Part shown: positions 25,570 through 63,013 of the stretch, in pieces
Numbering within the stretch: position 1 is the first letter of the stretch
Layout of the letters: every line of letters begins with the position of its first letter
Origin: Candidatus Heimdallarchaeota archaeon
Lineage (GTDB): Archaea > Asgardarchaeota > Heimdallarchaeia > Heimdallarchaeales > Heimdallarchaeaceae
Assembly (NCBI GenBank): GCA_030603365.1
Contig: JAUVXV010000002.1
Location: forward strand, 160,001-224,000
Length of the DNA: 64,000 nucleotides
Direction: 5' to 3'
Position numbers and translations under genes: made by a program
Notes under the pieces: generated by a model
Told to the model about the DNA's origin: nothing
The model's database searches: none
The model's input: only the letters and a program-made list of their open reading frames with translations

Positions 25570-25720
25570 ATGATGTGGTTTTGTCATCTTGTCATATTAG
25601 CAAGAAAAGTTAAATATCTTTCTTAGAGTTCATCATGTAGAGCAGTGTAAATGTTCTATACTCACTCTGAGGGGATACATCACATATCCTCCTACCCCGT
25701 TCACCTTACACTTGGGTAAA
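25570..25720 (-). ncRNA. Putative omega/reRNA scaffold overlapping the tnpB 3' end (boundaries approximate)
   Basis: Hairpins at 25638-25658 and 25671-25692; position matches known TnpB omegaRNAs. Confidence 0.4.
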
Positions 25721-26892
25721 GCTTTCGGATCGCTTTTAACTAAAATATTGTAAGCTGCATTAACATCAGCATTGATAAAATGTCCTTGAGAAGATTTAAA
25801 CAACCCCCGTTTAACTCTTTTCCCCATATATCTGGTTTGAGTTTGGGGAAACTCGTTATCGAGAAAACTGCACTTAGAAGTGTACTCTTCTGGGATGAGC
25901 TCAACCTTTATCCCCCGTTCTGCAGCTTTATACGTGAGCATATTAATGATCCGCATGAAGGGGATGGTGACAAACATTTGGGTGACTTTTTTCCAGAAAT
26001 GCACCCCTTGTTTCCACTTCTTGTTGTAACCAATAACCACCTCGTGAAGATCTCGTTCAACCCACAATTCAACTAGATAATGGGTGAGTTTGTGGATAGC
26101 ATCTTTGAGTTTCATCCTCCACTTTTCACGCAATTGGTAGAAGGTTTTTCCATACTTCAATTTATTCTTGATTTTCAGCTGCTGACGTTGTTGCAGGACA
26201 TATTGTTCTCGTAATTGTGTCTGGTTTTTCAAATAATATTGAGTTATTGATTTTATTCCTCTCCCGTGATCCTTGATAACAATCGGTTGATTCCCGAGGT
26301 TATCCACAAAGGTCACAAGATTGGTCATCCCTAAATCGATTGCTCCCTTACGTCTGGGACGTTTCTTTAACTGAGGTAAGGTCTTGAGATAAATCAGTTC
26401 TATCGTATAGCCCACTTGTCTTGGTACGATTCGTACTTCTCGTAATTTCGTACTTGCTGTTAGTCTTGTCTTATAGTAATATCCTACCTTCTTGGGTAAC
26501 ACTAGCCACCCGTTCCTTATCATAGCTTGTTGGTTGCTGAAGATAGCCATCACCTCCCCATCTTTAGGTTTGTACCCAGGGGGACGGGGCATAGCGAAGA
26601 ACAACTTGGGATTCTTCTTCCACTCCTTGATTGCTCGAAAGAACGCTTTCCAATTTCTGGATAGGAGTTTGAGGGTATGCTGGGCTGTATGAACTGGTAA
26701 AATCTTATAGCATTCTTCGTTTTTGAGCAAAGAGTTGAGGTCATAATAGTACAGGAGCTTGTTCTGCTTATTAAGAGAGGTTTTGAAAAGGAAATTAGCT
26801 CGATTATAGAGATTCTTCACTTGATGACAAAGCTTGCTCAACGCTGGATGATAAGACACTTCTATACATTCAACTCGTAAGACCTGCGTCAT
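25633..26892 (-). CDS. tnpB: TnpB RNA-guided endonuclease (IS200/IS605/IS607 family, rearranged RuvC-II type)
   Basis: KNLYN.A, WK.F, P.PP.YK, AIDLG, VIGYN..WKQ, EEYTSKCS, INADVNAAYNI. Confidence 0.93.
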   Translation of the reverse strand: MTQVLRVECIEVSYHPALSKLCHQVKNLYNRANFLFKTSLNKQNKLLYYYDLNSLLKNEECYKILPVHTAQHTLKLLSRNWKAFFRAIKEWKKNPKLFFAMPRPPGYKPKDGEVMAIFSNQQAMIRNGWLVLPKKVGYYYKTRLTASTKLREVRIVPRQVGYTIELIYLKTLPQLKKRPRRKGAIDLGMTNLVTFVDNLGNQPIVIKDHGRGIKSITQYYLKNQTQLREQYVLQQRQQLKIKNKLKYGKTFYQLREKWRMKLKDAIHKLTHYLVELWVERDLHEVVIGYNKKWKQGVHFWKKVTQMFVTIPFMRIINMLTYKAAERGIKVELIPEEYTSKCSFLDNEFPQTQTRYMGKRVKRGLFKSSQGHFINADVNAAYNILVKSDPKALPKCKVNGVGGYVMYPLRVSIEHLHCST

Positions 26893-27153
26893 CAGTAGTT
26901 CAGTTGTATTTCCCTATAAAAGCTCCAGTAATATCTGGTCTAACGCATACATTCAAGGTATTTCGTTGTTCATTTAACATGACTACATGACAAAAACACA
27001 TCATAAACTAGCACAAAACGACGATAACATCATTTTTGTCGGTTATTTTTAGATTTTCAACAAAAAATTTGGTCTGTATGTAATACTCTAATCTAAGATG
27101 TATTACTTGAAGTTGAAAATTTTTTTTGATTAAATGAATAGTTAAGTCTTTCA

Positions 27154-27354
27154 TCACATCTTATGAAGTTGCTCAGACTCCCTTATATTGAGTTTATCTG
27201 GGATATTACGCTCATAATCCTCCTTTTCTAAGAATTCTGTAAGCGCATCTCGTACAAGCTCTGACCTCGAATCATAATTCCCCATTGACATCATGTCACT
27301 CATCCATTTAATCATGCTATCAGTGACTTTGAAAGTTATTAATCTCTTCTTCAT
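27154..27354 (-). CDS. Ribbon-helix-helix (CopG/Arc/MetJ) regulator
   Basis: LITFKV beta strand, then G.YDSRSELVRDAL. Confidence 0.85.
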   Translation of the reverse strand: MKKRLITFKVTDSMIKWMSDMMSMGNYDSRSELVRDALTEFLEKEDYERNIPDKLNIRESEQLHKM

Positions 27355-27622
27355 TGGTTGACCAAGCTATAAATTACGCACATCACATATATATTTTTTG
27401 TCGGTAACCTAAGAAAAAACGAAAATGTAATACCCAGATGTTACGACGGTATTATTAATTACATAAAGTTGACTCAAAAAACAGCTGATTCACTGTTTTT
27501 ATATTAGAAAATTTACTAGTATTTTAAAAATTATCAGGAACAATTTACAATTTATAATAGGCTTTTAAAAATAAACTAGACCCTAAAGAAAAAAACTTAT
27601 TTGTAAATTGAAAAAAATGATG

Positions 27623-28783
27623 TTATTCAGAGTCTTTATCAAATTCATCCAAGTCGTCCATGTCACTAGCTTCTTTCTTCCAGGTAGAGTATTTCTTCAT
27701 TATTGATTCAAGATCACCTGAAATTGTACGGGCTTCAGCTACTTGTGATGGTGGTAGTGGTAGTGGTTGCGGTTGCGGTTTTGGTTTTGATCTCTTCAAA
27801 TCATCGAACGATTTGATTTCCTTAATATCTATAATAGGCTTTCCTTCAATTTTCTCCTTTGATTCCTTCTCTTCTTCTACTTTTTCTAACCAGATTCTGT
27901 ATCGATCAATGTCTTCTACTTCTTTCTTATGATCTTTTATCATATTGAAAATTTCTGATCTGATTGGTTTAGAAGTGTCCCAACACATTTGCCACACTAA
28001 ATCTGTCTGATATTTTGAAAACTTTCGCGACATTTTTTTTTCCATGAATTGAGCGAATCTCCAGAATTTTTCTCCTAGTATTTCTGCAATTTTCTTCTCT
28101 GCAGTAACTTCATCTGATTCAATGCTTAAAACGGTTTGAATTCCCTCCAGCTGTTCATAAACATACTTCCTGATATAAGGCCATAAATTTGGAAATTCCA
28201 ATAATTCTTCTCTTTCAGAAAGTTGAACAATTGCTGGTGTTTCATCAACATGTTTTGTTTTCTTCGCCTGAACCGATCTGAGAAGAGCCTCTACATCTTC
28301 GTAGCCATTAGTTCTTGCAATCATTTTTAGTGCTGCATCAATTGAATATAACAAAGAGGCTTGATGTTCCAATTTGGATTCTGCCATTAAATCTTCTACG
28401 GCCAATTCAGAACCTATAGCACCTAGTGATAAAGCAACTCTACTTTTTATACTAACATTTGGGTCTTTTGTCAATGACACCAATAAAGCAGATATTGCTT
28501 GAGGTGAAGCAAATTTACCTAAAGCTCGTGATGCAGCTAATCGTATCTCAACTTCATTATCCATCAGACAGTAGATTAAGGTCTCAATAGATCTATGGTC
28601 AGAAATTTCAGCTAGAGCAATAATTGCATATGTTCTGTTCTCCAACGTATCCTGATTCACTACTTTAATTAGAGGTTCAACAGCTCTTTCATCTCTTAAA
28701 TCGCCTAGAGCAAGTATTGCTTCCTCTCTCTTTTCCTTTTCATCATGACTGAGCTGCTTGATTAACTTGTTAATATTAACCAT
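27623..28783 (-). CDS. HEAT (PBS-lyase-like) repeat protein with Pro-rich and acidic C-terminus
   Basis: R..AI.ALG.L.D.RAVEPLI repeats. Confidence 0.8.
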   Translation of the reverse strand: MVNINKLIKQLSHDEKEKREEAILALGDLRDERAVEPLIKVVNQDTLENRTYAIIALAEISDHRSIETLIYCLMDNEVEIRLAASRALGKFASPQAISALLVSLTKDPNVSIKSRVALSLGAIGSELAVEDLMAESKLEHQASLLYSIDAALKMIARTNGYEDVEALLRSVQAKKTKHVDETPAIVQLSEREELLEFPNLWPYIRKYVYEQLEGIQTVLSIESDEVTAEKKIAEILGEKFWRFAQFMEKKMSRKFSKYQTDLVWQMCWDTSKPIRSEIFNMIKDHKKEVEDIDRYRIWLEKVEEEKESKEKIEGKPIIDIKEIKSFDDLKRSKPKPQPQPLPLPPSQVAEARTISGDLESIMKKYSTWKKEASDMDDLDEFDKDSE

Positions 28784-28868
28784 TACAGTTAAACAAACTA
28801 CGCCAAATATTTAATTTTATTGCTAGAGAAAAGATATTTCACTCTCAATGATTGTAAAATAAACAAAT

Positions 28869-29834
28869 TTAGAGAAATTTTCTATTGCTATAATCTTCTT
28901 TAGCAATTAAAGTAACAGCTGAATCCTCTTTGTAATCGATAATCCTTAGTTCAGAGTCTTCAATTATCTGATCAGAGAAACTCTTTATCTTTTCAAACCT
29001 TGGCATAATCTCATATGAAAGCCTTTGTCGAGCATCCCCTACTGACATGAACCCTTTAGGTTCTAAATAATGAGCTTCTGATTTAAGAAAGAGATCTTTA
29101 TACAGAAGAGGTTCATCCATGTTATATCCTGGAACCAATGTTAAACGCATAACCTTCCTTGTATTGAGTGATGGTAAAAGGTCTACTGTATCCATTATTT
29201 TGTTCCAAGCATTTTTATCACTTGGTCTTGCTGTTTTGTCAAATAACTCTTGAGTAGGAGCTATCATTGTCACATACAATTGAGTAGGAAGAGGATCTAG
29301 TTTCTCCAAAACTTCAGGAGTTGTTCCATTGGTTACTAGAAAAGTAGTCATGCCTCTAGAATGGAATTCTTCAATAAGTTCACCAATTCTGGGGTAGAAT
29401 GTTGGTTCACCGCTCAGTGATATTGCAGCATGTTTAGGATTGAAAGCTTCTTCATACATAGATTCAGGTACTTTCGAATGTTTGTTGTAGCCAGCAATCA
29501 GCTTTCTCTGGTAGTAAATCATCTCGTCAACAATGTGTTCTGGATCATCAACTTTGCAATCCATCATCTTTTTATTATACCACGAAGCACTTCTCCAACA
29601 AAAAATACACTTTAAATTGCACCATATGGTTGCTGGAGTACATTGTAAGCATCTATGGGAATCAATACCATAAAATTTGCTTTTGTAGCAGACACCTTCT
29701 CCCTTTAATGAATGCTTTAACCATGTGCACGTTTTGACAGCAGAATGAGAACCAGCAATTCTATACTGTTGTTTCTCAAGCTTTTGTTTTACTTTTTCCG
29801 GAATAGTGCAATGTTCCTCTATCATGGTAACCAC
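28869..29834 (-). CDS. taw1: tRNA 4-demethylwyosine synthase Taw1/TYW1 (radical SAM)
   Basis: HSAVKTC.W, CYK.KFYGI.SHRC, CNLKCIFCWR, H.AISLSGEP. Confidence 0.95.
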   Translation of the reverse strand: MVTMIEEHCTIPEKVKQKLEKQQYRIAGSHSAVKTCTWLKHSLKGEGVCYKSKFYGIDSHRCLQCTPATIWCNLKCIFCWRSASWYNKKMMDCKVDDPEHIVDEMIYYQRKLIAGYNKHSKVPESMYEEAFNPKHAAISLSGEPTFYPRIGELIEEFHSRGMTTFLVTNGTTPEVLEKLDPLPTQLYVTMIAPTQELFDKTARPSDKNAWNKIMDTVDLLPSLNTRKVMRLTLVPGYNMDEPLLYKDLFLKSEAHYLEPKGFMSVGDARQRLSYEIMPRFEKIKSFSDQIIEDSELRIIDYKEDSAVTLIAKEDYSNRKFL

Positions 29835-29871
29835 AAAAAGGATATGATAGATAATATTACATTAAAGATTC

Positions 29872-30270
29872 TTATCTATCTACAAGACTGTCCAATGTAA
29901 TTTCATCCAAAAAACCAAATCTACTTTGATCGCTTAACCAAGATTGTGCTTCGAAATCGTTGGTAAAAGATCTAACTTTGTCCTTTAGTTCCTTGTTTTT
30001 TATTTTCTTCTTCTTCTTAGCGTAATAAAAGGCCATATTTTGAACTACATTACCTTTAGACCCCAATTTATCCGCTACAATATTAGCTAGATTTTCAGAT
30101 TCATCCCCCTCATAATTAGATAAATCTAACAAATAAAATAAAGGTTTTTTAGCATTCTCAACTTGTTCTTTAATGCACCTGGCTAACTCTTTTTCCATCT
30201 TGTCGTTGTACTTTCCCTCGAAATTCATACGAACAATTACTTTTGATAAGTATCTTACATGAATTGTCAT
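29872..30270 (-). CDS. Hypothetical protein, possibly STAS/SpoIIAA-like
   Basis: LLDLS.Y and F....EA..WL pattern. Confidence 0.5.
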   Translation of the reverse strand: MTIHVRYLSKVIVRMNFEGKYNDKMEKELARCIKEQVENAKKPLFYLLDLSNYEGDESENLANIVADKLGSKGNVVQNMAFYYAKKKKKIKNKELKDKVRSFTNDFEAQSWLSDQSRFGFLDEITLDSLVDR

Positions 30271-30412
30271 TGTTCACTTTACACCTATTATAACTCAGCT
30301 TCGTTGGAATATTTAAAAAAGATTTGTTCTAACCATATTTGCCTTACATGTGACTAATAATGTTAGAGAAAATCCTTAATAAATGGAATGTATCAGCTTT
30401 AAATGAACTATC

Positions 30413-31018
30413 ATGGTCCAGAAGGAAAATGAAGAAAAAAAAGACAAAGCAGATGAAGAAGAATCCTTTTTCAACAAATCAAGACGTTTAAGGGTTCTGA
30501 AATTTGGAATTGTAAGCTCTGTTGGATTAAGTATTAATTATTTGATAGTTTTCTTGATGCTATTGATTCTAAATATCGCTATTTTTTCACCATATTTCTG
30601 GTCATCAAAAATTATAAGTTCACCAGATTTTCTTGCAAGATTTTTCACTGACACTGATATTCTCTTCAGCATTTGGTTCTTAGATATTTCAAGAGTACTC
30701 GTTTCTCAAGCTGTAGCAATTCTGATAGTTATGATTTATAACTATTTCATTAATAAGATTTGGACTTTCAAGGAACAGGAAGAAGAAGCAGAATTCAACA
30801 CTTTATATCAATTCATTAAATTCGCTGCTGTCGGAGCACTTGGAACAGTTATCAATCTAGGTCTAGTGTATCTCTTTTATGATGTCATTGGATGGAATGA
30901 ATACCTTGCAATTACTATCGGGTTTGTGGTTTCAGTTTTCTCCAATTTTATTCTAAATGATATCTGGACATTTAATCCTAAATTTGGTAAGAAGAAAACA
31001 GAACAAGAATCAAACTAA
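30413..31018 (+). CDS. GtrA family flippase-like membrane protein
   Basis: KF..VG...T.IN and N(Y/F)..N.IWTF, each occurring twice. Confidence 0.85.
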   Translation: MVQKENEEKKDKADEEESFFNKSRRLRVLKFGIVSSVGLSINYLIVFLMLLILNIAIFSPYFWSSKIISSPDFLARFFTDTDILFSIWFLDISRVLVSQAVAILIVMIYNYFINKIWTFKEQEEEAEFNTLYQFIKFAAVGALGTVINLGLVYLFYDVIGWNEYLAITIGFVVSVFSNFILNDIWTFNPKFGKKKTEQESN

Positions 31019-31377
31019 ACTTCTTTACCACAGCTTGAACAGAAGGTTGAATCAGTTTCCATTCTAAAACCACAGTTTTCACAAAAACTTACTGTTGGGT
31101 CATTATTTTTTAAATGGACTAATTGTTGATCGCTCTTATATCTCTTCTGAACATTACCATAGTAACTGTTCAAGTTATCATACATCACTTTGGTTCTTGA
31201 AGAAACGCCTCTTCTTGCTAAAAACCATAACAAACCTGCTATGAAAATGCAGATACCAGATACAACGAAGAATACCGTAATGTCATCATAAAAAAGGAAG
31301 TAAACTCCCACTAGTGCAGCTGCTAAAAGGAACCAAGAAAAACTACCAAAACGGTATCGTTTACGTTCCCCAGCCAT
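31015..31377 (-). CDS. Membrane protein with C-terminal double zinc ribbon
   Basis: Two TM helices; FCENCG...FCSSCG. Confidence 0.75.
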   Translation of the reverse strand: MAGERKRYRFGSFSWFLLAAALVGVYFLFYDDITVFFVVSGICIFIAGLLWFLARRGVSSRTKVMYDNLNSYYGNVQKRYKSDQQLVHLKNNDPTVSFCENCGFRMETDSTFCSSCGKEV

Positions 31378-31403
31378 AGTGAATCAATCTTAAACATAGA
31401 CGA

Positions 31404-33155
31404 TTATAAGTCATTCCTTTTGGAATTTGGCGAAAGAAATTCAAATTCTAGGATTTTCAATTGTTCTAGATGAAACGGAAATGGTTCAGGTAATAAAGAT
31501 AGTTTTTTTCTCCAATCTTTCTTATCTGTTATCCATGAGTTAGAATCAAGTGGATTTATTGGTGCATCGAATCTTATAGGTTTGTCAACCTTTCCTTCAT
31601 CCATTATTTCATCGATTTGCTCTCTGAATTTTTCATAATAATAGATTTCAGATTCATTAAGAATATTGAGCAATTTTGCGTCTGTGAATTCATCATCTGC
31701 GCGCATTAGATACATTTCTGCTCTCGTTTTGTTTTTGTTGAATACTTGATATATTGCCATCATTGTATAACTATAGATAGGTACAAAACGATTATTAAAA
31801 AGCATAAGATATACTTCTGCTGCTCTATCGAAGTAATTTTTCGAGTTAGCTAAATATTCAGGATCTTCTCCTTCAGCCCATCTGAACAACCAGAACCTGG
31901 CTAACAATAAAGACAGTTCTGGATCACCCTTATCAATTCCTTGAGTTTTGATAATTTTTTCCATTTTGGTGGTATCAGTCACTAAATCATATACAAATGC
32001 TCCAAAAGCAATCTTTGCATAAATCCCAATTAAATTGAAAGAAATTCCTAATTCTTCTCTTCTTGATCTACTCAGAAGTTCATTAACAAAATCTTCTATT
32101 TCTCGGAGAATTTCTTCTACTTCAAACTTGATAACAGACCTTGTTATTTCTGGTTTGTCGTCTTTGATATCTCCAACTAGTTTTGAGTTCTTGTATTGTG
32201 TTGCAATTAGATTATTCAAAATCTGGTAAAATCTTGTTTCTAATAATAGCGATTTCTGTTGAATGAAAAAGCTTCTAATTGTATCTCCAAACTCAGGATC
32301 ATTTATGTAAGGTTGAATTTCCGCCAATGCGCTACTATTTTCAATGTATGCCAGATTAAGCTGTTCAGTGATGTCTTCATTTGTGAATCGTACTCTCAGT
32401 TGGTGTAATTGTGCTTTCAAAGAAAACAAAGAAGATTCAGAAGTTTTTATTCTTAAGAGCTCAAACGGTTCTTCCTCAATTTCCTTGAGATAATGATGCC
32501 CTAGTCTAGCTTTTTCTATTGCGTCTTCAAATAATCCGCACCAATCCAAAAGATCTTCTTTGGAAATAACAGGGACTGTAACAAGGAAATTGTAAAGAGT
32601 AAGTACCAACAATTGAGCATAATTGGTAGCTGATTTTACAATATTCAGCTTGTCAGTTTCAGATAGATTTAGCCGTAGAATGGAATCAAGTTGCATATAA
32701 TCTATCAAAAAATTTAGATTCTGATTTTCTTTAGAGAGTAATTCACTGATTTTGTCTTTAGGAGGAAGCTTCCCATATTGAATTGTTCCTTCTAAAACAG
32801 CATGAAGAGTATAATAGGGATTTAATCCTTTGAGTTTAGAAAAAAGATCAATAAATGCAGATAAAGCAGGATAAAGCATAAACTGTGAGCTGCAGTTTTC
32901 TACTGCCTCCCACATTACTTTAATACTATACACAAGAAAATCAAAGTATTCTTTCTTGTAAACCCCAGATAATCGATATAAGCGCGAGATAAATGATTTG
33001 AAATGAGCAATTTTTGTGATGAATGAATCTACATCTACGTTTCTTTCTGAGAGAGTCAGAACTATCTCATCTACTTTACTTCGAACGAAATATATCATTT
33101 CTCTTGGTTGTAAACTTAAGAACTCATTTTGTTCTTGATCGAATGAATTGCTCAT
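31404..33155 (-). CDS. Hypothetical all-alpha protein (583 aa)
   Basis: Long ORF; no family recognised. Confidence 0.65.
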   Translation of the reverse strand: MSNSFDQEQNEFLSLQPREMIYFVRSKVDEIVLTLSERNVDVDSFITKIAHFKSFISRLYRLSGVYKKEYFDFLVYSIKVMWEAVENCSSQFMLYPALSAFIDLFSKLKGLNPYYTLHAVLEGTIQYGKLPPKDKISELLSKENQNLNFLIDYMQLDSILRLNLSETDKLNIVKSATNYAQLLVLTLYNFLVTVPVISKEDLLDWCGLFEDAIEKARLGHHYLKEIEEEPFELLRIKTSESSLFSLKAQLHQLRVRFTNEDITEQLNLAYIENSSALAEIQPYINDPEFGDTIRSFFIQQKSLLLETRFYQILNNLIATQYKNSKLVGDIKDDKPEITRSVIKFEVEEILREIEDFVNELLSRSRREELGISFNLIGIYAKIAFGAFVYDLVTDTTKMEKIIKTQGIDKGDPELSLLLARFWLFRWAEGEDPEYLANSKNYFDRAAEVYLMLFNNRFVPIYSYTMMAIYQVFNKNKTRAEMYLMRADDEFTDAKLLNILNESEIYYYEKFREQIDEIMDEGKVDKPIRFDAPINPLDSNSWITDKKDWRKKLSLLPEPFPFHLEQLKILEFEFLSPNSKRNDL

Positions 33156-33221
33156 TAATAACTAATGATTATGGAAACTGATAAAGGTGACGAAATTGTC
33201 AAAATTGAAAAAAAGAAAATG

Positions 33222-35039
33222 TTAGGCTAAATCTAACTTTTCTAGTTCTTCCTTGGTAGGATAACCAAGTTCATCCAAACCTCGTTTTTCGTAAAGCTTT
33301 GCTCTTGATTTAATAAAATCTTCATTATCGACAAAAGCAGTTTTACCTTCTGCTCGACCAGTAGGTAGAGGTTCTTCCATAAATCGTTTAGGAAGGTTAT
33401 CAAATTTAATTGGAGCTTTATCCCCAAATTCTCGAATATTGAACATTCTCTTCAGTATCCAAACTCTGCGAGCTACATTGATTAGCTCTTCCTCAGTAAC
33501 TTCCCTATCCCATACAGCTGACATAATGTCAACACAATCATCAAAACCTAAAGCTGGTTTGATACTATGTGTAAAGTGGCAGATGGAAAGACAATCTTTG
33601 ATAGTCTTGAGATCTTGTTGTTCAATCAAAGAATCTAGAACTTCAATCGCACTCTTATCAGGAACATCACTAGTAGTTGGCCATCCTCTCAAATGACTCG
33701 CACCAACAGCAGCTGTAGCATAACTGAGTCCTAAACCTAGTTTAGCTCGTGGATCCCAAGCTGCGAAAGGTAGTTTCTTAACATGAATAGCTAGATCCTC
33801 AATGTTCCAATGTTCAGCTGCTTGAGCTATTCCTTCAGCAAGAACATCACCTATATCCTTACGATAAGCTATCTTATCAATTAGTTCTAGAAATTTATCC
33901 ATATTTCCAAATTCGACATCATCAAATTCTGGTCCTTCGACTAATCCTTTCTCTTTGGCTTCCATGGTCATGGCTATTGCACTGCCAGTTGAGATAGTAT
34001 CTAGTCCTAGTTGGTTGCACAAGTAATTTGCATGAATAACAGCTTCAACATCATTTATCCCACAATTACCTCCAAGCATGGCAAGTGTTTCATATTCTGG
34101 TTTAGCAATTTCCTTTCTGTCTTTCTCAACCCAGTCAAAAACAGAAGCATCAAGAGTTTCACTGCAACCTATTGGACATTGAAAACATGGACGCCTGAAT
34201 CGTTTGTATTTCTCATCAAAAATTTCATGGCCAAGATTATCTACATCCTCAAATTCCCCTGATTGCCAATTACGAGTAGGGTAGTGATCAAGATTACTAG
34301 CTACTTGAACCAACCAGCTGGTTCCATGTTGATGGAGTAAATGACCATCATCCTTAGCATTTTTTGCTCGTTGAATAATATCTTTTCTAATATCAGCTAT
34401 TTGATCTTGATTGCCTTCTTTTGGACGAGAAGAACCTTTGACAGCTACAGCTTTAAGATTCTTTGAACCAAAAACTGCACCTAATCCTCCTCTTCCAGCA
34501 TTTCGAAAACCATCAGAAGTTGTACAAGCGAATTTTACAAGATTTTCCCCTGCAGGACCTATGGTCATTACTCTTACTTTTGGTTCTCTTTCTAACTCTC
34601 TAAGCAGTACTTCAGTTTCATAAACGAAGTAACCCCATAAATCGGTAGCATCCTTAATCTCAACTTTTTGATCTTTTATGGAGATATAGACTGGCTTAGA
34701 GGATTTACCTTCGATGATAATCAAATCGTAACCAGTAAATCTGATTTCTGGTCCGAAAAATCCTCCAGCATTACTATCCAAATACAAGCCTGTTAAAGGA
34801 CTCTTAGTCCCTATTGCATACCTGCCAGAAACAGGAATCTTTGAGCCTTGTAAAGGACCAGGAGCAATTATTATTTTATTTGCTGGTGAGAGAGGATCAA
34901 TATTAGGCTCTAACTCTTTATGCAAATAGTAAGTTATGAAACCTGTTCCTCCGATATAATCATAAATAACAGAATTCGGGATTTCTTCTGTTGAAACCGA
35001 TTTATCTGTTAGATTTATCCTTAGAAGCTTATTATTCAT
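33222..35039 (-). CDS. aor: Tungsten aldehyde:ferredoxin oxidoreductase family (probable start 35039)
   Basis: KSPLT, GPAGENLV, GRGGLGAVFGSKNLKA, C..CPIGC, EYET, GLDTIS. Confidence 0.93.
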   Translation of the reverse strand: MNNKLLRINLTDKSVSTEEIPNSVIYDYIGGTGFITYYLHKELEPNIDPLSPANKIIIAPGPLQGSKIPVSGRYAIGTKSPLTGLYLDSNAGGFFGPEIRFTGYDLIIIEGKSSKPVYISIKDQKVEIKDATDLWGYFVYETEVLLRELEREPKVRVMTIGPAGENLVKFACTTSDGFRNAGRGGLGAVFGSKNLKAVAVKGSSRPKEGNQDQIADIRKDIIQRAKNAKDDGHLLHQHGTSWLVQVASNLDHYPTRNWQSGEFEDVDNLGHEIFDEKYKRFRRPCFQCPIGCSETLDASVFDWVEKDRKEIAKPEYETLAMLGGNCGINDVEAVIHANYLCNQLGLDTISTGSAIAMTMEAKEKGLVEGPEFDDVEFGNMDKFLELIDKIAYRKDIGDVLAEGIAQAAEHWNIEDLAIHVKKLPFAAWDPRAKLGLGLSYATAAVGASHLRGWPTTSDVPDKSAIEVLDSLIEQQDLKTIKDCLSICHFTHSIKPALGFDDCVDIMSAVWDREVTEEELINVARRVWILKRMFNIREFGDKAPIKFDNLPKRFMEEPLPTGRAEGKTAFVDNEDFIKSRAKLYEKRGLDELGYPTKEELEKLDLA

Positions 35040-35180
35040 GCGAGAAGAAAACAAGAAGATTTTTTAAAGGTTGTTTTTCAACAATTGAACATAATTAACT
35101 CCTCATGTAAGAAAAAGAAGGGATGAAGGTTTTGTTCATGTTATTACTTCTTTTCTATGTAGTTTCTGACAGCTGTTCCA

Positions 35181-36263: not shown

Positions 36264-36457
36264 TTTTTTACCTCGATCAATGTAACTATAATGATTGGCT
36301 TTTAATTGTAATAAACTTTGTCTAATCTTAGAGAAAAATAACAATTTTGTCGTAAAACTAAACCATTTCTAGAAAGCCTTATTTACTATAAAATGTATAC
36401 ATTATAATTTCAAATAGTTGAACTAAACTATTTGAGGTTTGAAAAGAGTTGATAAAA

Positions 36458-38769: not shown

Positions 38770-38801
38770 AATCTAGCTTAAATTGCTAGATTCCTTTTTT
38801 T
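38770..38801. terminator. Hairpin between convergent genes (possible terminator)
   Basis: aatctagc-ttaaatt-gctagatt, followed by a T-run on the + strand. Confidence 0.4.
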
Positions 38802-38803
38802 CA

Positions 38804-40720: not shown

Positions 40721-41412
40721 TTAGTTAGGTATTAGAACGCACGTTATGAAACTTGGTTAAACTTACCAGAAGGCGCCTAACCGTCGTTTAAGTGGGTCCC
40801 CTCACGTGCGTTGAGGGGAAGTTATGCAGATTTAGGTCTGCGATAGTTGGTGGAGCATCAGCACCGAGCTAGCTAGGCCCCCTGGTTCAAGGTAGATTTA
40901 CTGAGGGACAACCACTTGTGTAGTTGCGAACCAGATACATGCTGAAACGCACACCTTCTAACTTGCTATGTGTACTTTCATATATAAACTCGTAGAAAAA
41001 TCGCTCAGGGTTACTCGCTCCTGCTACTCTTTTTACCCGGGTAGAGAGCGTATGGCAAGATCAGTCAACTTTCCTGCTCTCAGTGGACGACGGTTCCAAG
41101 AAAACCATTTGTCGTACCATCAATATTCCATAGAATACCAAACAGTTTCATTCCTTCAAAATCCTCAAAGCCTTGTAATGTAAACATCCCATAAAGCATT
41201 CCACCTACTTTCTTAGCCATGATAGTTCCAGTGAAATATCCTGATAGATCTCCCCATGTGATGTAAAACCAAGTTTGTCCATTGACTACAAGAACTCCTG
41301 TTGCTAGGTCTATTTTAGCATTGAACAATGATTTTGTCCATCCAGTTATTATATCGTCTCCAATAGTTCCACCTAATAAGTGCATAGACCAGTAATCTTT
41401 GATATGAAGTAT
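40721..41412 (-). pseudogene. 5'-truncated small beta-rich protein gene, interrupted near its 3' end by a 353-bp insertion
   Basis: Removing 40740-41092 gives ...GGA ACC GTT CTA ATA CCT AAC TAA (GTVLIPN*); the 5' end runs into the divergent pseudogene. Confidence 0.6.
40740..41092 (+). mobile_element. ORF-less, GC-enriched, highly structured 353-bp insertion with a duplicated ACG core
   Basis: ACG at 40737-40739 and 41090-41092; several hairpins; removal restores the host ORF. Confidence 0.65.
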
Positions 41413-43392: not shown

Positions 43393-43395
43393 CTT

Positions 43396-51722: not shown

Positions 51723-51728
51723 TGAGAA

Positions 51729-53468: not shown

Positions 53469-53546
53469 TCTCTTCTTCCTCTTTTTTTATTATCAATCTT
53501 CGGAAAAGTTAAAATGAGATAACATTTTTCTTTTAATGATAATAAC

Positions 53547-55088: not shown

Positions 55089-55863
55089 AATTATTTAACT
55101 TCTGTTTGAAATAGATATTTTGAGCATTAGTTTTCTTTTCATTTATTTTCTGTGCAACAGTAAGGATAGCATTTGATGATTTTTCCAAATTACAAACCTT
55201 GAAACCATTAATTATTAGGTATAATCTCAATTCATCCTCAGTAAAAGCTCGAAGAGTGATTTCATCATCAAAAGATGTTTTCTGTTCTTCTTCTATTATT
55301 TCATAATGAGATTTCCATTTCCAAGTCCAACCATGTTCTAAATCAAAAGATGTTTCGCTTAATCTGAGATACTTTCTATTATCATATTGAGACTTATGTT
55401 GAGATTCTTCTCTGAAATCTGTAAAAATCACAGATGCATCAAAATTATCAAATATTAACCATCCTTCATGATTTAAAACTTCATGAATTGAATTCAAAGC
55501 AAACATTACATCATGATTAGTAGTCATGTGAGTAAAAGTTCTTCCTGTAACAACAACTGCATCATAGGTTTCATTTAACTCCAGATGTCGCATATCACCT
55601 CTGATAAAATTCCCTTTTGGCACATATTCCTTCGAGAGCTCAATCATCTCTTTCGAAATATCTAGGCCAGTATAGTTGTATTTATTCTCAATGAATAATT
55701 TAGCCATATTTCCGCTCCCACTGCCTATTTCAAGAATTTTCTTAGCTTTAATCTTTGAAAGATATTTATCATAAATCTTGAATTCTTCCTCATAATCGAA
55801 TATTGTTTGATACATCTCATGATATGCACGAGCATATTCAGAGTAAATCTTGAAAATCTTCAT
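55075..55863 (-). CDS. Class I SAM-dependent methyltransferase
   Basis: ILEIGSGSG, GLD.S..M, GDMR. Confidence 0.88.
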   Translation of the reverse strand: MKIFKIYSEYARAYHEMYQTIFDYEEEFKIYDKYLSKIKAKKILEIGSGSGNMAKLFIENKYNYTGLDISKEMIELSKEYVPKGNFIRGDMRHLELNETYDAVVVTGRTFTHMTTNHDVMFALNSIHEVLNHEGWLIFDNFDASVIFTDFREESQHKSQYDNRKYLRLSETSFDLEHGWTWKWKSHYEIIEEEQKTSFDDEITLRAFTEDELRLYLIINGFKVCNLEKSSNAILTVAQKINEKKTNAQNIYFKQKLNNFSEI

Positions 55864-55971
55864 GATATACTTGCATAAAAGTACCCATATAAGTTTCTTT
55901 CTCGAATTGAGTTAATTTTCAAAAAGGTTCATATGTCTTCTCTGATAAAGTATTATTCTAGGTAACTCGCA

Positions 55972-56550
55972 ATGAAAACTAAAACCTCCTTCATTCTTAG
56001 TTCTTCATTTGTCTTTCTTATGATTTTATTATTGAGCAGTTCTACTAGTTATACCTGCTCAACAGAACTTTCTGAAGATTCAGTACATAACTTTGTAATT
56101 CCTACAAATGAACCATTGGATGAAACAATACTTGAAATCACAAAAATAGAGACATACCCATCACCAGCAATATTGAATCAGCCACTTTTCGTCAATATCA
56201 CTGTAAAGAATAGTGGTCAATTCACTATGGCAGAAATTAAAAATGTAAAGGCGGAAGCTGATGTAAATATAAGCCAAGACGTACTTGTGTTAGAGGGTTC
56301 AATTACCGGTCTTGAGCCTGGACAGCAACAAATAGCTAGGTTTAATCTTACTTTCCTTGAAATAGGTGTAGCAAATGTTACTTTTACAATTTCAACTGAT
56401 AATACTCAAGCTGTTTCTAAATCTGTATTAGTAGAAGTAATTGATGATGGAAATACAGCAACTTTATCCTTAAGACAAATTTCAATGATACTTAGTCTAT
56501 TACCAGTCTTTCTAATTCTCAAATTCAGAAAAAAGAAAAGAATCAGATAA
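55972..56550 (+). CDS. Secreted CARDB/Ig-like protein with C-terminal anchor
   Basis: Signal peptide, VKNSG, LEPG; TM plus RKKKR tail. Confidence 0.65.
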   Translation: MKTKTSFILSSSFVFLMILLLSSSTSYTCSTELSEDSVHNFVIPTNEPLDETILEITKIETYPSPAILNQPLFVNITVKNSGQFTMAEIKNVKAEADVNISQDVLVLEGSITGLEPGQQQIARFNLTFLEIGVANVTFTISTDNTQAVSKSVLVEVIDDGNTATLSLRQISMILSLLPVFLILKFRKKKRIR

Positions 56551-56581
56551 CTTTAAATTTGCTTAATTTTCCGAAAATACA

Positions 56582-57604
56582 ATGATAGACTTACGTTCTG
56601 ATACTTTTACTCTTCCATCCAAAGAGATGATGGAATCTATTATGAATGCGAAATTGGGTGATGATGTCTGGGAAGAGGACCCAACAGTAATTGAACTAGA
56701 AGCCCTTATAGCTAAAAAATTAGGTAAAGAAGCAGGATTGTTAGTAACTAGCGGAACGCAAGGAAATTTGGTTTCACATATGACACATCTTGCTAGAGGG
56801 GATGGAGTAGTTTTAGAAAAAGAGAGTCATATTAATTTGTATGAAGTTGGAGGGGTTTCTCAAGTATCAGGAGCTTATCCAATGATAGTTAATGGTGAAA
56901 ATGGATTAATGGATCCAAAGGACATAGAATCTATTTTCACAACTCCTTATAATGTTCACAAAGTTATTCCAAGATTACTTTGTCTTGAAAACACTCACAA
57001 CAGGGGTGGTGGAAGAATAATTCCAAAGGATAACATTGATACTTTGTCAAAAATAGCTAATGAGAATGGTGGATCAGTTCATCTAGATGGAGCTAGATTA
57101 TTTAATGCTGCAGTTGCTACTGGCATATCTGCAGCTAAACTTGCTGAGAAGGTAGATAGTGTTCAAATATGTTTGAGTAAAGGTTTAGGTTGTCCTATTG
57201 GCTCATTGATTGTAGGAACAGAAGATTTTATTTTTAAATCTAGAAGAAATAGAAAGATTGTCGGGGGCGGAATGAGGCAAGCAGGAATAATTGCAGCACC
57301 AGGGATCTATGCGTTGACTAATATGATTGATCGTTTAGCTGAGGACCATAATCATGCTAAAATGCTTGGTAAAGCATTAGAAGAGATTCAAAACTTCAAT
57401 GTTAAGCCGTATGATACTAATATCGTCATAGTAGATACTACAGAAAGCAAGTTATCAGCTGGAGATGTAGCTGATAAACTAGAGAAAAAAGGTATTCTAG
57501 TAACTTTTATGGAAGATCAGCTGTTTAGAATGGTTACATACTTTGGCATAACAAAAGAAGACGTAGAATCTGTGATTAGCTCAATTTTTGAAGTTTTGAA
57601 ATGA
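56582..57604 (+). CDS. ltaE: Low-specificity L-threonine aldolase
   Basis: DLRSDT, GDDV..EDP, SGT.GN, LENTHN, HLDGARL, CLSKGLG, GGGMRQ. Confidence 0.93.
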   Translation: MIDLRSDTFTLPSKEMMESIMNAKLGDDVWEEDPTVIELEALIAKKLGKEAGLLVTSGTQGNLVSHMTHLARGDGVVLEKESHINLYEVGGVSQVSGAYPMIVNGENGLMDPKDIESIFTTPYNVHKVIPRLLCLENTHNRGGGRIIPKDNIDTLSKIANENGGSVHLDGARLFNAAVATGISAAKLAEKVDSVQICLSKGLGCPIGSLIVGTEDFIFKSRRNRKIVGGGMRQAGIIAAPGIYALTNMIDRLAEDHNHAKMLGKALEEIQNFNVKPYDTNIVIVDTTESKLSAGDVADKLEKKGILVTFMEDQLFRMVTYFGITKEDVESVISSIFEVLK

Positions 57605-57688
57605 TAACTATCAGTTTTTTTTAAAATTTTTAAATTGATAATTTTGAGGAATATCATAGACTTTTTATATTTCTTTTTTGGAGTTTAC

Positions 57689-58531
57689 ATGATACATGTG
57701 TCAATTGATGATTATCTAGATGGTCTCTTATCTGGTAGTTCTGAAACCTCTAAGAAAGCCATTATGAAGCTTACCAAATTGATTGAAAATTTCGGTGCGA
57801 TAATGGTTAAATCAACCGAGAGGATGGAGGATTATATGAATGTATTAGATTCAAGAATAAATGCGGTTGAAAGAGCGTTAGGCGTAGCTTCAGCAGCAGC
57901 AGCAGCAGCACCAGCAGCAGCAGCAGCAGCACCAGCAGCAGCACCAGCAGCAGCACAATCAGCACCTTCCCTCGAAGGAGCTAATCCTGGTTCAGTAGGC
58001 GCACCAAATCTTTCTGCAGCACCAAGTGGAGGAGCTCCAGATTTAAGTGCAATGCCAGCACCTGCAGGAGCTCAGGGTTCAACTGGTGGAGGTATTAGTA
58101 GTGATGATTTAATGAAAGCAGCAGCTGGTTTACAGAAAGCTCCTGAACAAACTGCAGCAGCTGGAGCACCAGGAGATCCAGATGGAGCACCAGCTACTTT
58201 CAGTCCTTTTGGTGTTAGTGCAAATGATATTCAAGGTATACGAGCAGGGTTAACTAAAGTAGACCCTGATGAACATAGGAAAGAAAGAGCAGCAGCAGCA
58301 GGAGAATCTGAGTCAATGCCCGCATCCTTTGCACTTAACATGGAAGTTAAAGATGCTTTAGCTAAACGAGCTTCTCGAATTTCAGAAGCCGATGATGAAG
58401 AAAAAGAATTCGGACCATCTGATGCACCATCAACTCCAGCTAGATCAACAAAACAAATGAAAGAAGCCTTACAAGGTGAGTTAAGAGACGCTTTTAGCAG
58501 TCTTCTTGAGAGCGATACAAACGAAGATTAA
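57689..58531 (+). CDS. Coiled-coil plus Ala/Pro/Gly-rich protein with putative WH2-WH2-C-acidic region (probable start 57689 or 57698)
   Basis: Motifs described under findings; the ORF itself is clear. Confidence 0.6.
   Translation: MIHVSIDDYLDGLLSGSSETSKKAIMKLTKLIENFGAIMVKSTERMEDYMNVLDSRINAVERALGVASAAAAAAPAAAAAAPAAAPAAAQSAPSLEGANPGSVGAPNLSAAPSGGAPDLSAMPAPAGAQGSTGGGISSDDLMKAAAGLQKAPEQTAAAGAPGDPDGAPATFSPFGVSANDIQGIRAGLTKVDPDEHRKERAAAAGESESMPASFALNMEVKDALAKRASRISEADDEEKEFGPSDAPSTPARSTKQMKEALQGELRDAFSSLLESDTNED
57891..57956 (+). repeat. (GCA)n/CCA trinucleotide tract encoding poly-Ala/Pro
   Basis: cagcagcagcagcagcagcaccagcagcag... Confidence 0.9.
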
Positions 58532-58622
58532 CGACACTCTTATTTCTTATTAAATTATTCAAAAAAACAATTCACATTATATAAAACATTTTACATTTCA
58601 ATAATTTACAAGGTAATTAGTA

Positions 58623-60722
58623 ATGACAAACGACATTAAACAATACTTAGAATACATCATGAAAATTAAGCCAAACATTAAACTTAGCAAAATTTATCAG
58701 ACAATTTATGATGATTGCAGGGAATTTGTGAAAATAAGTAACGATCCCTATTTTACATGTAAGAATACAAACATTTCGAATATTTTCGATATCTCTTGGG
58801 TGGGATTAACTGAAAATTTCTCTGAAGTTTCAGAATATTATTTATTTGATTTATACTGGCTAGATGCCATCAATTTCGAGGTATTTAGAACAGTTATTCA
58901 AGAACTAGAGAAGAATATGATTCTGGAAAACGAACTCCTAGTATACGCTTTTTGGCTATACTCAAAGAAGAGAAAAATCATTTTCAACTACTTTAGCTTT
59001 CTGGAATTTACCAAAAAGCTAGGAGTAAAACCATTGGGTTTCTCTGATTTCTTTAAATTTACAAAAAAGAATATTTCTAATATCACTTTATCAGAACAGG
59101 AAATCTATGTGGGTAATGAGATTGATAGAATTCTAAAAAATCTTCAAACCAGATCTCAATATTTGGAAGAGATTGCTAGTTCAGTTTCTCCAAAATATTA
59201 TCGATACCTAGATTTCCTAATTGATCAAAATCTGCTGAATGAACTATCCTATCACTATTCAAAACATCAAAGTTCGGAAATTAAGCTTGAAAAGAAAACT
59301 TCAATGGCTGAATTCCAGAAGAAGATTGAGAAGAAGTACAAAGAAAACGAATTCCCTACTGTACCTACTGTTGTAGATCCAATATTACAAAAACATCTTT
59401 CGAAAATCGATGCAAAAGCAGTTTCTATGGAGAAATTAGCTAAACTTCCAAATGAAATAATAAAAGAATTTGCGACCATCCGTGCTTATTCTAGCCCTTC
59501 TGTTGCCCAAAAGATTAGGATAACTTTCCTCGGAGGAGGGAATATAGGTAATATGGGTATCTTAATTCAACATGACAACAACGCAATCGTGATAGATTAT
59601 GGTATGAGTGTAGCTAATGGCTCAATCCCTCGTTGGCATCCAGCACTAAAATATGTTAAAGCAGTTCTTGTCACTCATGCACATTTAGACCATACTGGAG
59701 CACTTCCTTATCTTATTACTCCTGAAAATGGTAAAAGATGGTATGCAACACAGTCAACAAAAATGCTGACTGAGCGATTGTTAAATTCAACAACTTCTAT
59801 TTTGAGGATGAATGGAATAACAAAGAAAAAAGCATCACCCTTACAGTCTGCATATCTTAATAAATCAAACATAATTAACCTATTCAATGTTTTTAACCCA
59901 ATTAAACCTAAAAAGACAATTGAAGTAAGTCCTGGCTTTGAAGTTACACCTTATCCTGCATCACATATCTTTGGCAGCTGTGGGTACAAAATAGATGTTT
60001 TTGGGAAAAGTATCTTCTTCACAGGTGATTTTTCATTAGATTCTAGTGAATTATTTAAAGGTGCAAACTTCCCTACTGATAGCGATGTAACTATTTTTGA
60101 TGGAACCTATTATAATCGTCAAACAACTTTTGCTGACCCTAATACTGTGATTCTTCAAGCTTCTGAAAGTTGCGATAAACTCATTATTCCTGCATTCTCA
60201 GTAGGTAGAACTCAAGAAATGATTAAACGATTGGAAAGATTAAGAATTTCAACCAAGAAGAATATTATAACTACTGGAATGGCTGGGGAAGTTTCCAAAA
60301 TTATGGGAATTAAAGCTAAATATGATATTGAGAAAAGTGTCTCTCCAGATAAATTCAAGGAGAATGATATCGTAGTAACTGGTCATGGAATGTTACAAGG
60401 AGGAACCGCAAGAAATCTATTAGATGCTACAAAAGACGAGAGAGATACTGGAGTTCTGTTATGTGGTTACCAAGCTCCTAATACTGTAGGATTTGCTCTG
60501 CAAAATTCTCTACCTGTTGCTAAACAGAGATATCATCAAAAAATCTTTTCTGCTCATATCAGCGGCCATACAAACTCACAAGGGTTGAATGATTTTATTG
60601 CCAATCTCGAAGGCAAGAAAATAATGGTACATACTCCTGATGACTCTGTTGTTAGAAAAGAACACAAAAATGTTCTAATCCCTGGCTATAACAAGGAAGT
60701 TGTTATAAGAAATCAAGTTTAG
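58623..60722 (+). CDS. MBL-fold beta-CASP ribonuclease with a ~290-aa N-terminal extension
   Basis: FLGGG..G, DYG, THAHLDHTG, SHIFG, FTGD, IPAFSVGR.QE, GYQA and SGH motifs. Confidence 0.85.
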   Translation: MTNDIKQYLEYIMKIKPNIKLSKIYQTIYDDCREFVKISNDPYFTCKNTNISNIFDISWVGLTENFSEVSEYYLFDLYWLDAINFEVFRTVIQELEKNMILENELLVYAFWLYSKKRKIIFNYFSFLEFTKKLGVKPLGFSDFFKFTKKNISNITLSEQEIYVGNEIDRILKNLQTRSQYLEEIASSVSPKYYRYLDFLIDQNLLNELSYHYSKHQSSEIKLEKKTSMAEFQKKIEKKYKENEFPTVPTVVDPILQKHLSKIDAKAVSMEKLAKLPNEIIKEFATIRAYSSPSVAQKIRITFLGGGNIGNMGILIQHDNNAIVIDYGMSVANGSIPRWHPALKYVKAVLVTHAHLDHTGALPYLITPENGKRWYATQSTKMLTERLLNSTTSILRMNGITKKKASPLQSAYLNKSNIINLFNVFNPIKPKKTIEVSPGFEVTPYPASHIFGSCGYKIDVFGKSIFFTGDFSLDSSELFKGANFPTDSDVTIFDGTYYNRQTTFADPNTVILQASESCDKLIIPAFSVGRTQEMIKRLERLRISTKKNIITTGMAGEVSKIMGIKAKYDIEKSVSPDKFKENDIVVTGHGMLQGGTARNLLDATKDERDTGVLLCGYQAPNTVGFALQNSLPVAKQRYHQKIFSAHISGHTNSQGLNDFIANLEGKKIMVHTPDDSVVRKEHKNVLIPGYNKEVVIRNQV

Positions 60723-61098
60723 AAGAATAGAATGATAATTTGATTTTCTCATGTTGGCATAGTGGGGGTTTCTGTGTTTATAGAGAGAAAACAAGAAAAA
60801 CTTCTGATTTCTGCAATTTATATAAGTAAGAAGGAAAAAAAAACTGATAAATGCTTGGTGATAGTAACAGTCAACGAAGCTGGATATGGATATGGTTTCC
60901 TAAAAGAGGATAGTGAACGAGGAAGGTGAGAAAAGCTAAGTATGGAATAGAAACAAGATTTTAGGGAGAATTTATGAAATTTAGAGAACAAAAAAAAGAG
61001 AACTAAAGGGTATTAAGAAAAGTATCCACTCAAATAATCTAAGTTCTAATTTTATTTATAAACTGGAAAAAAAAAAGATTAGAGGAGAGAAGGTAAGT

Positions 61099-62697
61099 TT
61101 ATTCTTTCCTCCGTTTTTGAACGATCAGAACAACAACAAACGAGAATAGAATACTGAACGAAAAGAAAAGCAGAGAGAGAGTCTGGAACTCAGGAACAAC
61201 GGGAGAGGATACAGTAAAAGAGTAGTATAAACCATTGTTGTCCTCAGTAGCTTCGTTATGTTCAGGACAATTGTCAGTAGCTGTGATGTAATAACTAATA
61301 ACAGTATCAACGGTAAAAGGACCAATGGGTACTTGGTACGTAGAACCAGTTGAAAGAGTCATAGAAACAACTACCCATCCACCAGCATTTATACGATAAT
61401 GGAGCATGACAGAATCAATGCCGGAAGAGTCAGTAATTGTTGCAGAGATGGTGATGGCACTGGAGTTTGTGGGGGGAAATGGACTGTGAGTGACGTTTTC
61501 GATACGTGGAGGAGTTTGAGGATATTCAGAAGGATAAGGATCAAAGGAAGTACTACTCCCATCAATAGAATAAGTGGTACTTCCGTCCCAATCTGACCAA
61601 TAGTTGCCACTTGATGATAATTGATCAAACCATTGATTATCAACGCCATCATCATAAGCTTGTGAAGGACCACCAAAATTGTTGTTATCAAAAATATTTC
61701 CGTAGATAAGGTTGGTAAATGATAGAATCGAGATACGAACGCTATAAGCACCATTATCATGTAAAAAGTTGTCAGTAATGAAAGTATAACTTGATTGGCT
61801 TAGAAAGATACCATAGATGGTATTGTTGCTACAATTATTCGCACTTACAGAATTATCACTAGAAGAAAGAAGACCGATACCAGCCTGGGTGTTGTAGCTA
61901 CACGTATTCGAAATTAAAGAATTATTAGTACTACCAGAAGAACCAAGCAAAATACCATAGTGGCTGTTGTAGCTACACGTATTCGAAATTAAAGAATTAT
62001 TAGTAGTACTAGCACCAAGACGGATACCATAGGTGTTGTTTGTACACGTGTTCGCACTTACAGAATTATAACTAGAAGAATAAAGACGGATACCACCATA
62101 GGTGTTGTTTGTACACGTGTTCGCACTTACAGAATTATTAGTACTAAAATCAAGACTGATACCATAGTCAATGTTGTTTGTACACGTGTTCGCACTTACA
62201 GAATTATTATCACTAGAAGAAAGCTGGATACCTTTGTAGTTGTTTGTACACGTGTTCGCACTTACAGAATTATTATCACTAGAAGAAAGCTGGATACCAA
62301 AGTTGTTATTGCTTGTACAAGTATTGTTCAGTATTGTTGCCGTACCATCAGCGATGCTGTCTATATGAATACCAACAAGGTTTGCGTCGACATAACAGTT
62401 ATGAATAACGAAATATTTCGTTGTGCTAGCAATATAAATACCTTTATCACTCGTTGTTGTAATATTATACCCTTCGATCACATAGGGATCTACAACAGTC
62501 CCTGTTCCAGGAAAACTGCTAAAACCGCTATCATCAGTGATGCTTATTGCGCTGTGTGGGGTAAGAGCTGAGACGAATAGTGGAGTAGATTTAGAGTTTT
62601 TTTGCGCATAAGTAGTTACTAGAGAAGAAATCAAGAGTACACTTAGCAAAATTATCGTTCTAGAGAACTTTGTTTTCTTGTTTTTTACTATTTTCAT
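61099..62697 (-). CDS. NosD/parallel beta-helix surface protein with an Ig-like domain and a PEF-type C-terminal anchor (start 62697 or 62721)
   Basis: DPYVIEG, NTC.NN..GI repeats, GNYWSDW; VPEF then TM then RRKE. Confidence 0.85.
   Translation of the reverse strand: MKIVKNKKTKFSRTIILLSVLLISSLVTTYAQKNSKSTPLFVSALTPHSAISITDDSGFSSFPGTGTVVDPYVIEGYNITTTSDKGIYIASTTKYFVIHNCYVDANLVGIHIDSIADGTATILNNTCTSNNNFGIQLSSSDNNSVSANTCTNNYKGIQLSSSDNNSVSANTCTNNIDYGISLDFSTNNSVSANTCTNNTYGGIRLYSSSYNSVSANTCTNNTYGIRLGASTTNNSLISNTCSYNSHYGILLGSSGSTNNSLISNTCSYNTQAGIGLLSSSDNSVSANNCSNNTIYGIFLSQSSYTFITDNFLHDNGAYSVRISILSFTNLIYGNIFDNNNFGGPSQAYDDGVDNQWFDQLSSSGNYWSDWDGSTTYSIDGSSTSFDPYPSEYPQTPPRIENVTHSPFPPTNSSAITISATITDSSGIDSVMLHYRINAGGWVVVSMTLSTGSTYQVPIGPFTVDTVISYYITATDNCPEHNEATEDNNGLYYSFTVSSPVVPEFQTLSLLFFSFSILFSFVVVLIVQKRRKE
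61891..62298 (-). repeat. Near-identical intragenic tandem repeats (66-75 bp period)
   Basis: gttgtttgtacacgtgttcgcacttacagaattat at 62035, 62104, 62173 and 62239; a 40-mer at 61891 and 61966. Confidence 0.85.
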
Positions 62698-63013
62698 AAT
62701 TAACCATCTAACCAAAGTCATGTAATAAAACGTGAAACAATATATAACCTTTGTGCCTTTTTTGTTCTTATTTTTTTGCTGTTTAACTAATGTAGCAAAG
62801 AGTATCTTTTGAAGGATTCTAGCTATGCCCCAAATTCCTGGTGATCCTCAGGGACACCCTCTACACGATGAAAAGCGGGTCGTAAGTATCCGTTCTATAA
62901 GCTGTGAGTGGTGAAATAGGGTATGTGGTTTATCTTCTCATAGTAAGCTATTCAGCGATGAAACTCTAGCAAAGATGGTGTTATATGACTAGATGACAGA
63001 ATCAAATCATGGA

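Follow-up and report, generated by a model that had tools for sequence, protein, structure and literature searches.

Four copies of a 28-bp motif in a 64,000-nucleotide stretch of a Candidatus Heimdallarchaeota genome (assembly GCA_030603365.1, contig JAUVXV010000002.1, positions 160,001 to 224,000 of the forward strand; the whole stretch is referred to as the window, and the genome as G000) are almost certainly the left and right ends of a tnpB-only, transposase-less insertion-sequence family of the Heimdallarchaeaceae. One pair of copies (A and B) bounds an ordinary full copy of the element; the other (D and C) bounds a host gene for a parallel beta-helix protein, in what is very probably one precise insertion between cognate ends. 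On balance, the family is likely to be a non-autonomous tnpB element derived from IS607, with the D–C unit an accidental composite transposon; this unit is one decayed event and not a system. It documents a host gene enclosed by tnpB-element ends at a precise position, and indicates a possible minor route by which genes are duplicated in the closest archaeal relatives of eukaryotes. The exact ends, TTAT target and guide boundary of an abundant Asgard TnpB family with a rearranged active site enable the design of direct nuclease and transposition tests, and the question is posed of which enzyme moves hundreds of copies when none encodes one. No earlier description of this tnpB family was found in a literature search.

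Motif copies within the window

Copies A (25570–25597), B (26977–27004), C (62983–63010) and D (60735–60762) lie where the preliminary description of this DNA had placed them, with the identities that it gave (A/B 24/28, A/C 24/28, C/D 21/28); the remaining comparisons yield 21/28 for A/D, 23/28 for B/C and 20/28 for B/D. The high A/B identity arises because the outer 11 bases of B resemble a right end. Distances to neighbouring stop codons are also as described, with A 31 bp after the methyltransferase gene, D 12 bp after the beta-CASP gene and C 3 bp after ugd. A scoring matrix derived from loci outside the window, with the window copies left out, recovered precisely four sites in the window, A–D (41.0, 40.9, 33.6 and 20.4 bits), against a mean best score of 7.8 bits in 200 dinucleotide shuffles of the window. 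The score of D, the weakest, was equalled in 2/200 shuffles and those of A, B and C in none; D is accepted as a genuine end because its homology to the left end of subfamily S3, together with the empty site, settles its identity. The four-copy observation is therefore confirmed, and its original interpretation is supported in part.

A family of tnpB-only elements

Approximately 30 motif copies are present in G000, mostly as outward-facing pairs ∼1.4 kb apart around tnpB, the rest being gene-less pairs (two of 346–347 bp), halves at contig breaks and a few orphans; orphan ends are common in the family. With an end model, 16–60 matches per genome were obtained in 13/31 family genomes against a background of ∼3–8, with background levels only in two single-contig genomes of another genus, and the relatives together hold hundreds of ends. 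The motif was not found in viral contigs; the matches returned by an 18-base metagenome scan look like chance and were set aside.

A census of 57 distinct paired elements with sequence in hand comprises 42 with a full tnpB, seven with an internally deleted tnpB, six without a gene and two with host genes; further pairs in 12 genomes have similar sizes, judged by eye from coordinates. With tnpB inside 49/57 pairs, it is the element's own gene and not cargo, so the proposal that the motif surrounds two unrelated cargo genes falls away for A–B, and D–C alone clearly contains a host gene. The nearest relatives of this tnpB (64–87% identity) are all in Candidatus Heimdallarchaeota assemblies. A search of the pairs for a transposase or recombinase, as had been suggested, found a serine TnpA in 0/57 and no transposase gene inside these ends; a 742-bp pair in the relative G004, considered as a tnpA-only partner, proved to be a deleted tnpB copy. 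The earlier proposal is supported in so far as the motif delimits a mobile element that is non-autonomous and depends on an enzyme encoded outside it.

Divergent tnpB copies lie at approximately C9:88102-89390 and C12:20850-22230 in G000. In this divergent subfamily the 8-bp unit is altered at both ends (TTCCGTTA-like) and the AT termini are retained, a parallel change as expected for protein-binding sites.

Element ends and target

The two ends are unequal. The right end (A and C types) follows a guide-RNA-like region, has a free outer flank and finishes in ATCAT, with these five bases conserved at 100, 99, 100, 100 and 100% across 78 right ends. The left end (B and D types) begins with AT, preceded by TT in 34/42 full elements to give a TT|AT target, and its terminal 10 bases are strongly variable. 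Each end contains two TGAC units spaced by 8 bp and inverted between ends, in agreement with the 8-bp recurrence described previously. The pair-specific bases noted there are likewise real, and represent co-variation of left and right ends within an element: within-element identity averages 20.8/28 against 19.3 in shuffled pairings and was reached in 0/5000 shuffles, related elements not being independent of one another. This co-variation suggests protein-binding sites that drift together.

When an element is removed and one AT is kept, the sequence aligns without gaps to orthologous empty sites, several of which lie within coding sequence. Where the right end is followed by G, it opens an open reading frame of at least 90 aa in 11/29 cases (background 15%); as right end plus flanking G is often the ATG of a gene, insertion parts that gene from its promoter. 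A complement of 4–6 nt lies upstream of 85/97 right ends, a raw count given without a null, and the invariance of the right end may reflect RNA pairing; a short right-end hairpin is seen by eye. Searches of G000 for further TTAT-plus-guide self-targets, and of the window for Rfam matches, found none, and a right-end/left-end circle junction was not found in the sequences examined, contigs being able to show presence only.

The A–B element and its TnpB

The A–B element lies on the minus strand and is 93% identical to a copy on contig C5. Its left end, B (26977–27004), is preceded by a TT|AT target; a TATA-like box of the putative tnpB promoter lies in the left-end region (26915–26921, minus) and recurs upstream of tnpB genes throughout the family. 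The intact tnpB (25633–26892, minus) encodes 419 aa, and its 3' end is overlapped by a predicted omega (guide) RNA scaffold (approximately 25570–25790, minus), recognised by homology to gene-less mini-elements, which ends with the right end, A (25570–25597, minus). This predicted placement matches known TnpB systems, and expression of the RNA is likewise a prediction.

The RuvC site of the A–B TnpB is rearranged, with D186, G288 at the canonical Glu position, an alternative E335, and D376, and its zinc finger is reduced to one Cys. The Gly at the canonical Glu and the alternative Glu 47 residues downstream resemble the RuvC-II-rearranged TnpB proteins (TnpB2/RIIr; TvTnpB, PMC10530073; Ealt, PMC10711439), a likeness known from sequence, from which the reduced zinc finger sets the A–B protein apart.

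Relatives have a conserved ∼170-aa gene between the methyltransferase and RHH genes; it was not found in this assembly, where the tnpB element occupies its place (25539–27030). The empty-site synteny proposed earlier is consequently not clean for A–B, this gene being missing, and holds precisely for D–C at the beta-CASP/ugd site. In G012, a family member is inserted inside the ∼170-aa gene (L388).

The D–C unit

The D–C unit occupies the gap between two host genes outside the element, those for a beta-CASP metallo-beta-lactamase (58623–60722, plus) and ugd, encoding UDP-glucose dehydrogenase (63014–64000, minus, running off the window), which are convergent and 10–17 bp apart in seven relatives. 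When 60735–63010 is deleted with one AT kept, the restored site gives a gapless 254-nt match to the relative G016, and the stop-to-stop distance is 17 bp in both.

Both ends match subfamily S3. Copy D (60735–60762, plus) is the left end, with an atypical TG|AT flank, and is followed by the S3 left-end promoter and 5' untranslated region up to the expected tnpB start (60763–60807, plus); together (60735–60807) they match the S3 left end of G007 in 53/73 ungapped positions. An AT-rich spacer including the downstream region of the cargo (60808–61098) has no homolog in the genome or fetched loci. The cargo gene (61099–62721, minus), antisense to the element, encodes a parallel beta-helix (NosD-like) protein of 540 aa, probably 531 aa from the ATG at 62694, with a CBM56-like domain and hydrophobic N- and C-terminal segments; its own upstream/promoter region (62722–62769, minus) matches at 80% the sequence upstream of a G037 homolog that lacks ends. 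A reading of 62740–62769 as a degenerate inner left end was dropped (score −22.6), the stretch being the cargo's own promoter. Next come the promoter and 5' portion of an omega-RNA mini-element of the stand-alone kind (62770–62917, plus), decayed and without a terminal left end, aligning from the first base with a mini-element of G038 directly after the latter's 30-bp left end. The S3-type right-end region (62918–63010, plus) includes copy C (62983–63010), and these last 93 bases have 81/93 identity to the S3 right ends of G017 and G033. The omega-RNA mini-element family is multi-copy in relatives, and S3-ended mini-elements with the same RNA body are present in G038 and G011; the assembly of this genome contains no full S3 copy. 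The D–C omega RNA has many changes at conserved positions and folds no better than shuffles (z −0.59).

The cargo family is very large: this genome has dozens of paralogs, of which the nearest is ∼58–60% identical, and the ends are absent from all close cargo homologs examined. Low-depth public contigs, possibly from the source samples, bridge the beta-CASP/D and cargo/mini-element junctions; no excision joint is found in those contigs, and the C/ugd junction is not among the listed pieces. Tandem 69-bp repeat units within the cargo gene (61807–62325) encode beta-helix turns.

Gene-less mini-elements of other kinds were seen alongside. A ∼358-bp mini-element on the minus strand of the window (40737–41094) shares its ends (ACCGT left, GTGCGT right) with the IS607 elements of G000, and other copies break contigs C2, C3, C6 and C7. 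A second gene-less family of ∼240 bp (approximately C3:19308-19546 in G000; L179, L185, L190 and L194–L196) comprises a promoter, an omega-RNA-like body and 19-bp imperfect inverted ends with AT termini and a TTAT target, and some relatives have at least a dozen matches to it per genome. In G010 (L359:285-2354, C112), a motif copy and the promoter half of this ∼240-bp family stand on either side of a 604-aa gene.

Proposed mobilisation and formation of the composite

In the preferred account, a non-autonomous IS607-derived element with an accidental composite at D–C, a transposase supplied in trans, most likely an IS607-type serine recombinase, would bind the 8-bp units and carry out strand exchange at the AT dinucleotide, and guide-RNA-directed TnpB would cut empty TTAT sites so that the element is kept in place. 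The beta-helix gene would have come to lie between an S3 left end, present as an orphan, and a nearby omega-RNA mini-element that carried an S3 right end, and the outer ends would have carried the 2.27-kb block into the beta-CASP/ugd gap, where it would have decayed after insertion. Composite transposition from a donor site of this kind is the simplest history; orphan ends are common, and the unit probably arrived as one piece.

The balance tips slightly towards a serine-type (IS607-type) enzyme as the mobiliser, and the IS607-type candidate named in the preliminary description is rated the best. The genome contains three IS607 tnpA genes, two intact, with a resident copy at C14:342860-343453, and tnpA is seen only in elements with other ends. 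Copies of tnpA at full-length coverage, several with stop codons, occur in nine relatives, all carriers of the family, and in 0/7 relatives without a pattern match. Among relatives of TnpB at 32–43% identity, any transposase neighbour was an IS607 TnpA, and several others were solo.

Several observations weigh against this account. No transposase gene bounded by these ends was found in any genome examined, and in G005 and G013 the family is present with no tnpA match. The resident IS607 elements have a GT core, an ACCGT target and AAWCTTRCC units 10 bp apart, and the sole likeness between family and resident IS607 ends is an 8-mer (ATCTTGCC vs ATCTTGTC). In a quick tree the family TnpB stands alone on a long branch, so a transposase switch is possible. 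The AT retained at empty sites would be either a shared 2-bp core or a 2-bp duplication, alternatives that are indistinguishable from sequence; the earlier statement that no target-site duplication is visible needs amending to this extent, as both ends finish in a common AT of which the empty site has exactly one. For D–C, the TG|AT flank occurs in 0/42 full elements, and no second copy or donor site of the D-cargo-C unit was found in searches.

Alternative explanations

An unlikely but serious alternative is that tnpB was captured by a cut-and-paste inverted-repeat element, with the AT a 2-bp duplication generated by a DDE or Asgard Cas1-like transposase. In contrast to the IS607 ends described (PMC6188088), those of the family are symmetric and lie at equal distances from the termini; inverted terminal repeats are known for DDE-linked TnpBs and for aCas1-linked TnpBs in Asgard archaea (PMC10691335); and two minimal elements, a 54-bp one consisting of two ends alone (L038:2709-2763) and a 113-bp one consisting of two right ends (L352:2691-2803), imply that the ends are interchangeable. 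However, the ends of the DDE elements found in five rich genomes are unrelated, the motif does not flank the solo Cas1-like remnants, which were rejected as the enzyme source, and the strong variation of the terminal 10 bases of the left end is unusual for DDE tips. No DDE gene with these ends was found in a search with PF01609 and PF13358 in a few genomes; no IS630-type gene was found in G000; and no aCas1 was found beside tnpB or within these ends, in a PF01867 search that could miss divergent aCas1. Unrelated ends also led to the rejection of the IS4/IS5-like elements in relatives and of an IS1182-like gene located on C12. Stand-alone broken Cas1-like genes outside CRISPR loci were observed at L414 (G037 C36), L405, L406 and L412.

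Remodelling in place concerns D–C alone and is rather improbable: an S3 element would first have entered between beta-CASP and ugd, and the beta-helix gene and a mini-element fragment would later have replaced tnpB by ordinary recombination, the ends never having moved cargo. It retains some weight because neither second copy nor donor site was found and the TG|AT flank of D is atypical; the interior is moreover a mosaic of three sources with a decayed guide scaffold, and orphan ends can bracket host genes by chance. An example is L336:348-1959 in G007 (C61), where a left end and a non-cognate right-end remnant surround two host genes that G000 does not have at the corresponding site; it is a possible second composite, but its site is not clean. 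Remodelling would nevertheless mean that a 1.4-kb element took up a foreign gene with its promoter, and a second piece of an element as well, with both cognate ends staying exact, and none of the relatives examined has an element at beta-CASP/ugd.

A more speculative extension, held to be doubtful, supposes an IS607-derived Asgard family with evolved symmetric AT-core ends read by another transposase, whose orphan ends and guide-RNA mini-elements would regularly mobilise host genes and so help to spread the beta-helix surface-protein family across Heimdall genomes.

A dedicated cassette system routinely shuffling single genes into gene-end regions, as first proposed, is very unlikely. One precise cargo insertion (D–C) and one weak second candidate (L336) speak for it; against these, 55/57 pairs contain tnpB, its remains or nothing, cargo homologs occur without ends, and the preference for gene ends or terminators is not borne out, insertions lying also within coding sequences and at ATG start codons. 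Comparably slight odds attach to mobilisation by a Y1 HUH transposase, the element in that case being of IS200/IS605 type (IS1341-like) with a TTAT target and a TCAT right cleavage site: insertion on the 3' side of a tetranucleotide, given a right terminus that does not vary, would yield an identical empty site, but no Y1_Tnp match was found in this genome or in any of 25 genus genomes (72–92% complete; control genomes positive), the family ends are inverted repeats of each other, and right-end invariance may instead come from RNA pairing. A transcription-factor operator, for which the fixed distance of left-end copies from a TATA box would speak, is refuted for practical purposes by copies that are paired at element boundaries and missing from empty sites.

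Comparison with known systems

Published IS607 ends are built of short direct repeats that are inverted between the two ends, and strands are exchanged at a 2-bp core (PMC6188088; bioRxiv 2023.11.20.567912). Compared with IS607 of Helicobacter pylori, IS1535, ISC1926 and the Clostridium botulinum IS607 IStron, the family is alike in its TnpB, 37% identical to that of H. pylori IS607, in its short repeated end motifs inverted between ends, in a shared terminal dinucleotide with which the target motif also ends, and in a guide RNA at the right end. It differs in the lack of tnpA from every copy (0/57 pairs), AT in place of the GG core of most IS607 members, a unit spacing of 8 bp against about 10 bp, and ends that form near-symmetric 28-bp inverted repeats, whereas IS607 is without terminal inverted repeats. 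With no resident transposase, no GG core and terminal repeats, the family is therefore a variant of the IS607 type and not a member.

Solo TnpB systems with stand-alone mobilised omega RNAs (Altae-Tran 2023, PMC10691335) resemble the family in having end-bounded copies with tnpB as the sole gene, for which mobilisation in trans is proposed, alongside guide-RNA copies that lack a gene within one genome; rare cargo is noted for some of their branches. Their solo ends, however, match a transposase-bearing element, and none was found here. DDE-linked and aCas1-linked TnpBs carry repeats at their ends, the aCas1 group being Asgard (PMC10691335), and resemble the family in the inverted terminal repeats around tnpB, but neither a DDE nor an aCas1 enzyme is linked to the family's ends, from which the GTTCACTCA motif of the aCas1-linked TnpBs is missing. 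A third Heimdall tnpB family (L078–L085; 38–40% identity) has a TGAT target, and its right end, GTCACTCAT, is similar to this GTTCACTCA motif. The family described here inserts 3' of a short target sequence (TT|AT, 34/42), as do IS200/IS605 (IS1341-type) elements, and differs from them in that their Y1 HUH transposase was found in none of the genus genomes (0/25). ISFba1 is no further example of an AT-ending target, its target being AGGAG.

In composite transposons and transporter insertion sequences, an unrelated gene lies between two element pieces and is bounded by their outer ends. D–C is alike in that element-derived ends bracket an unrelated gene with a precise empty site, and differs in that both flanking pieces are transposase-less remnants, present as a single, decayed copy. 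In the way it works, the family as a whole resembles a known kind, the non-autonomous IS607-type element accompanied by stand-alone guide-RNA copies; what is new here is the cargo composite with its empty site.

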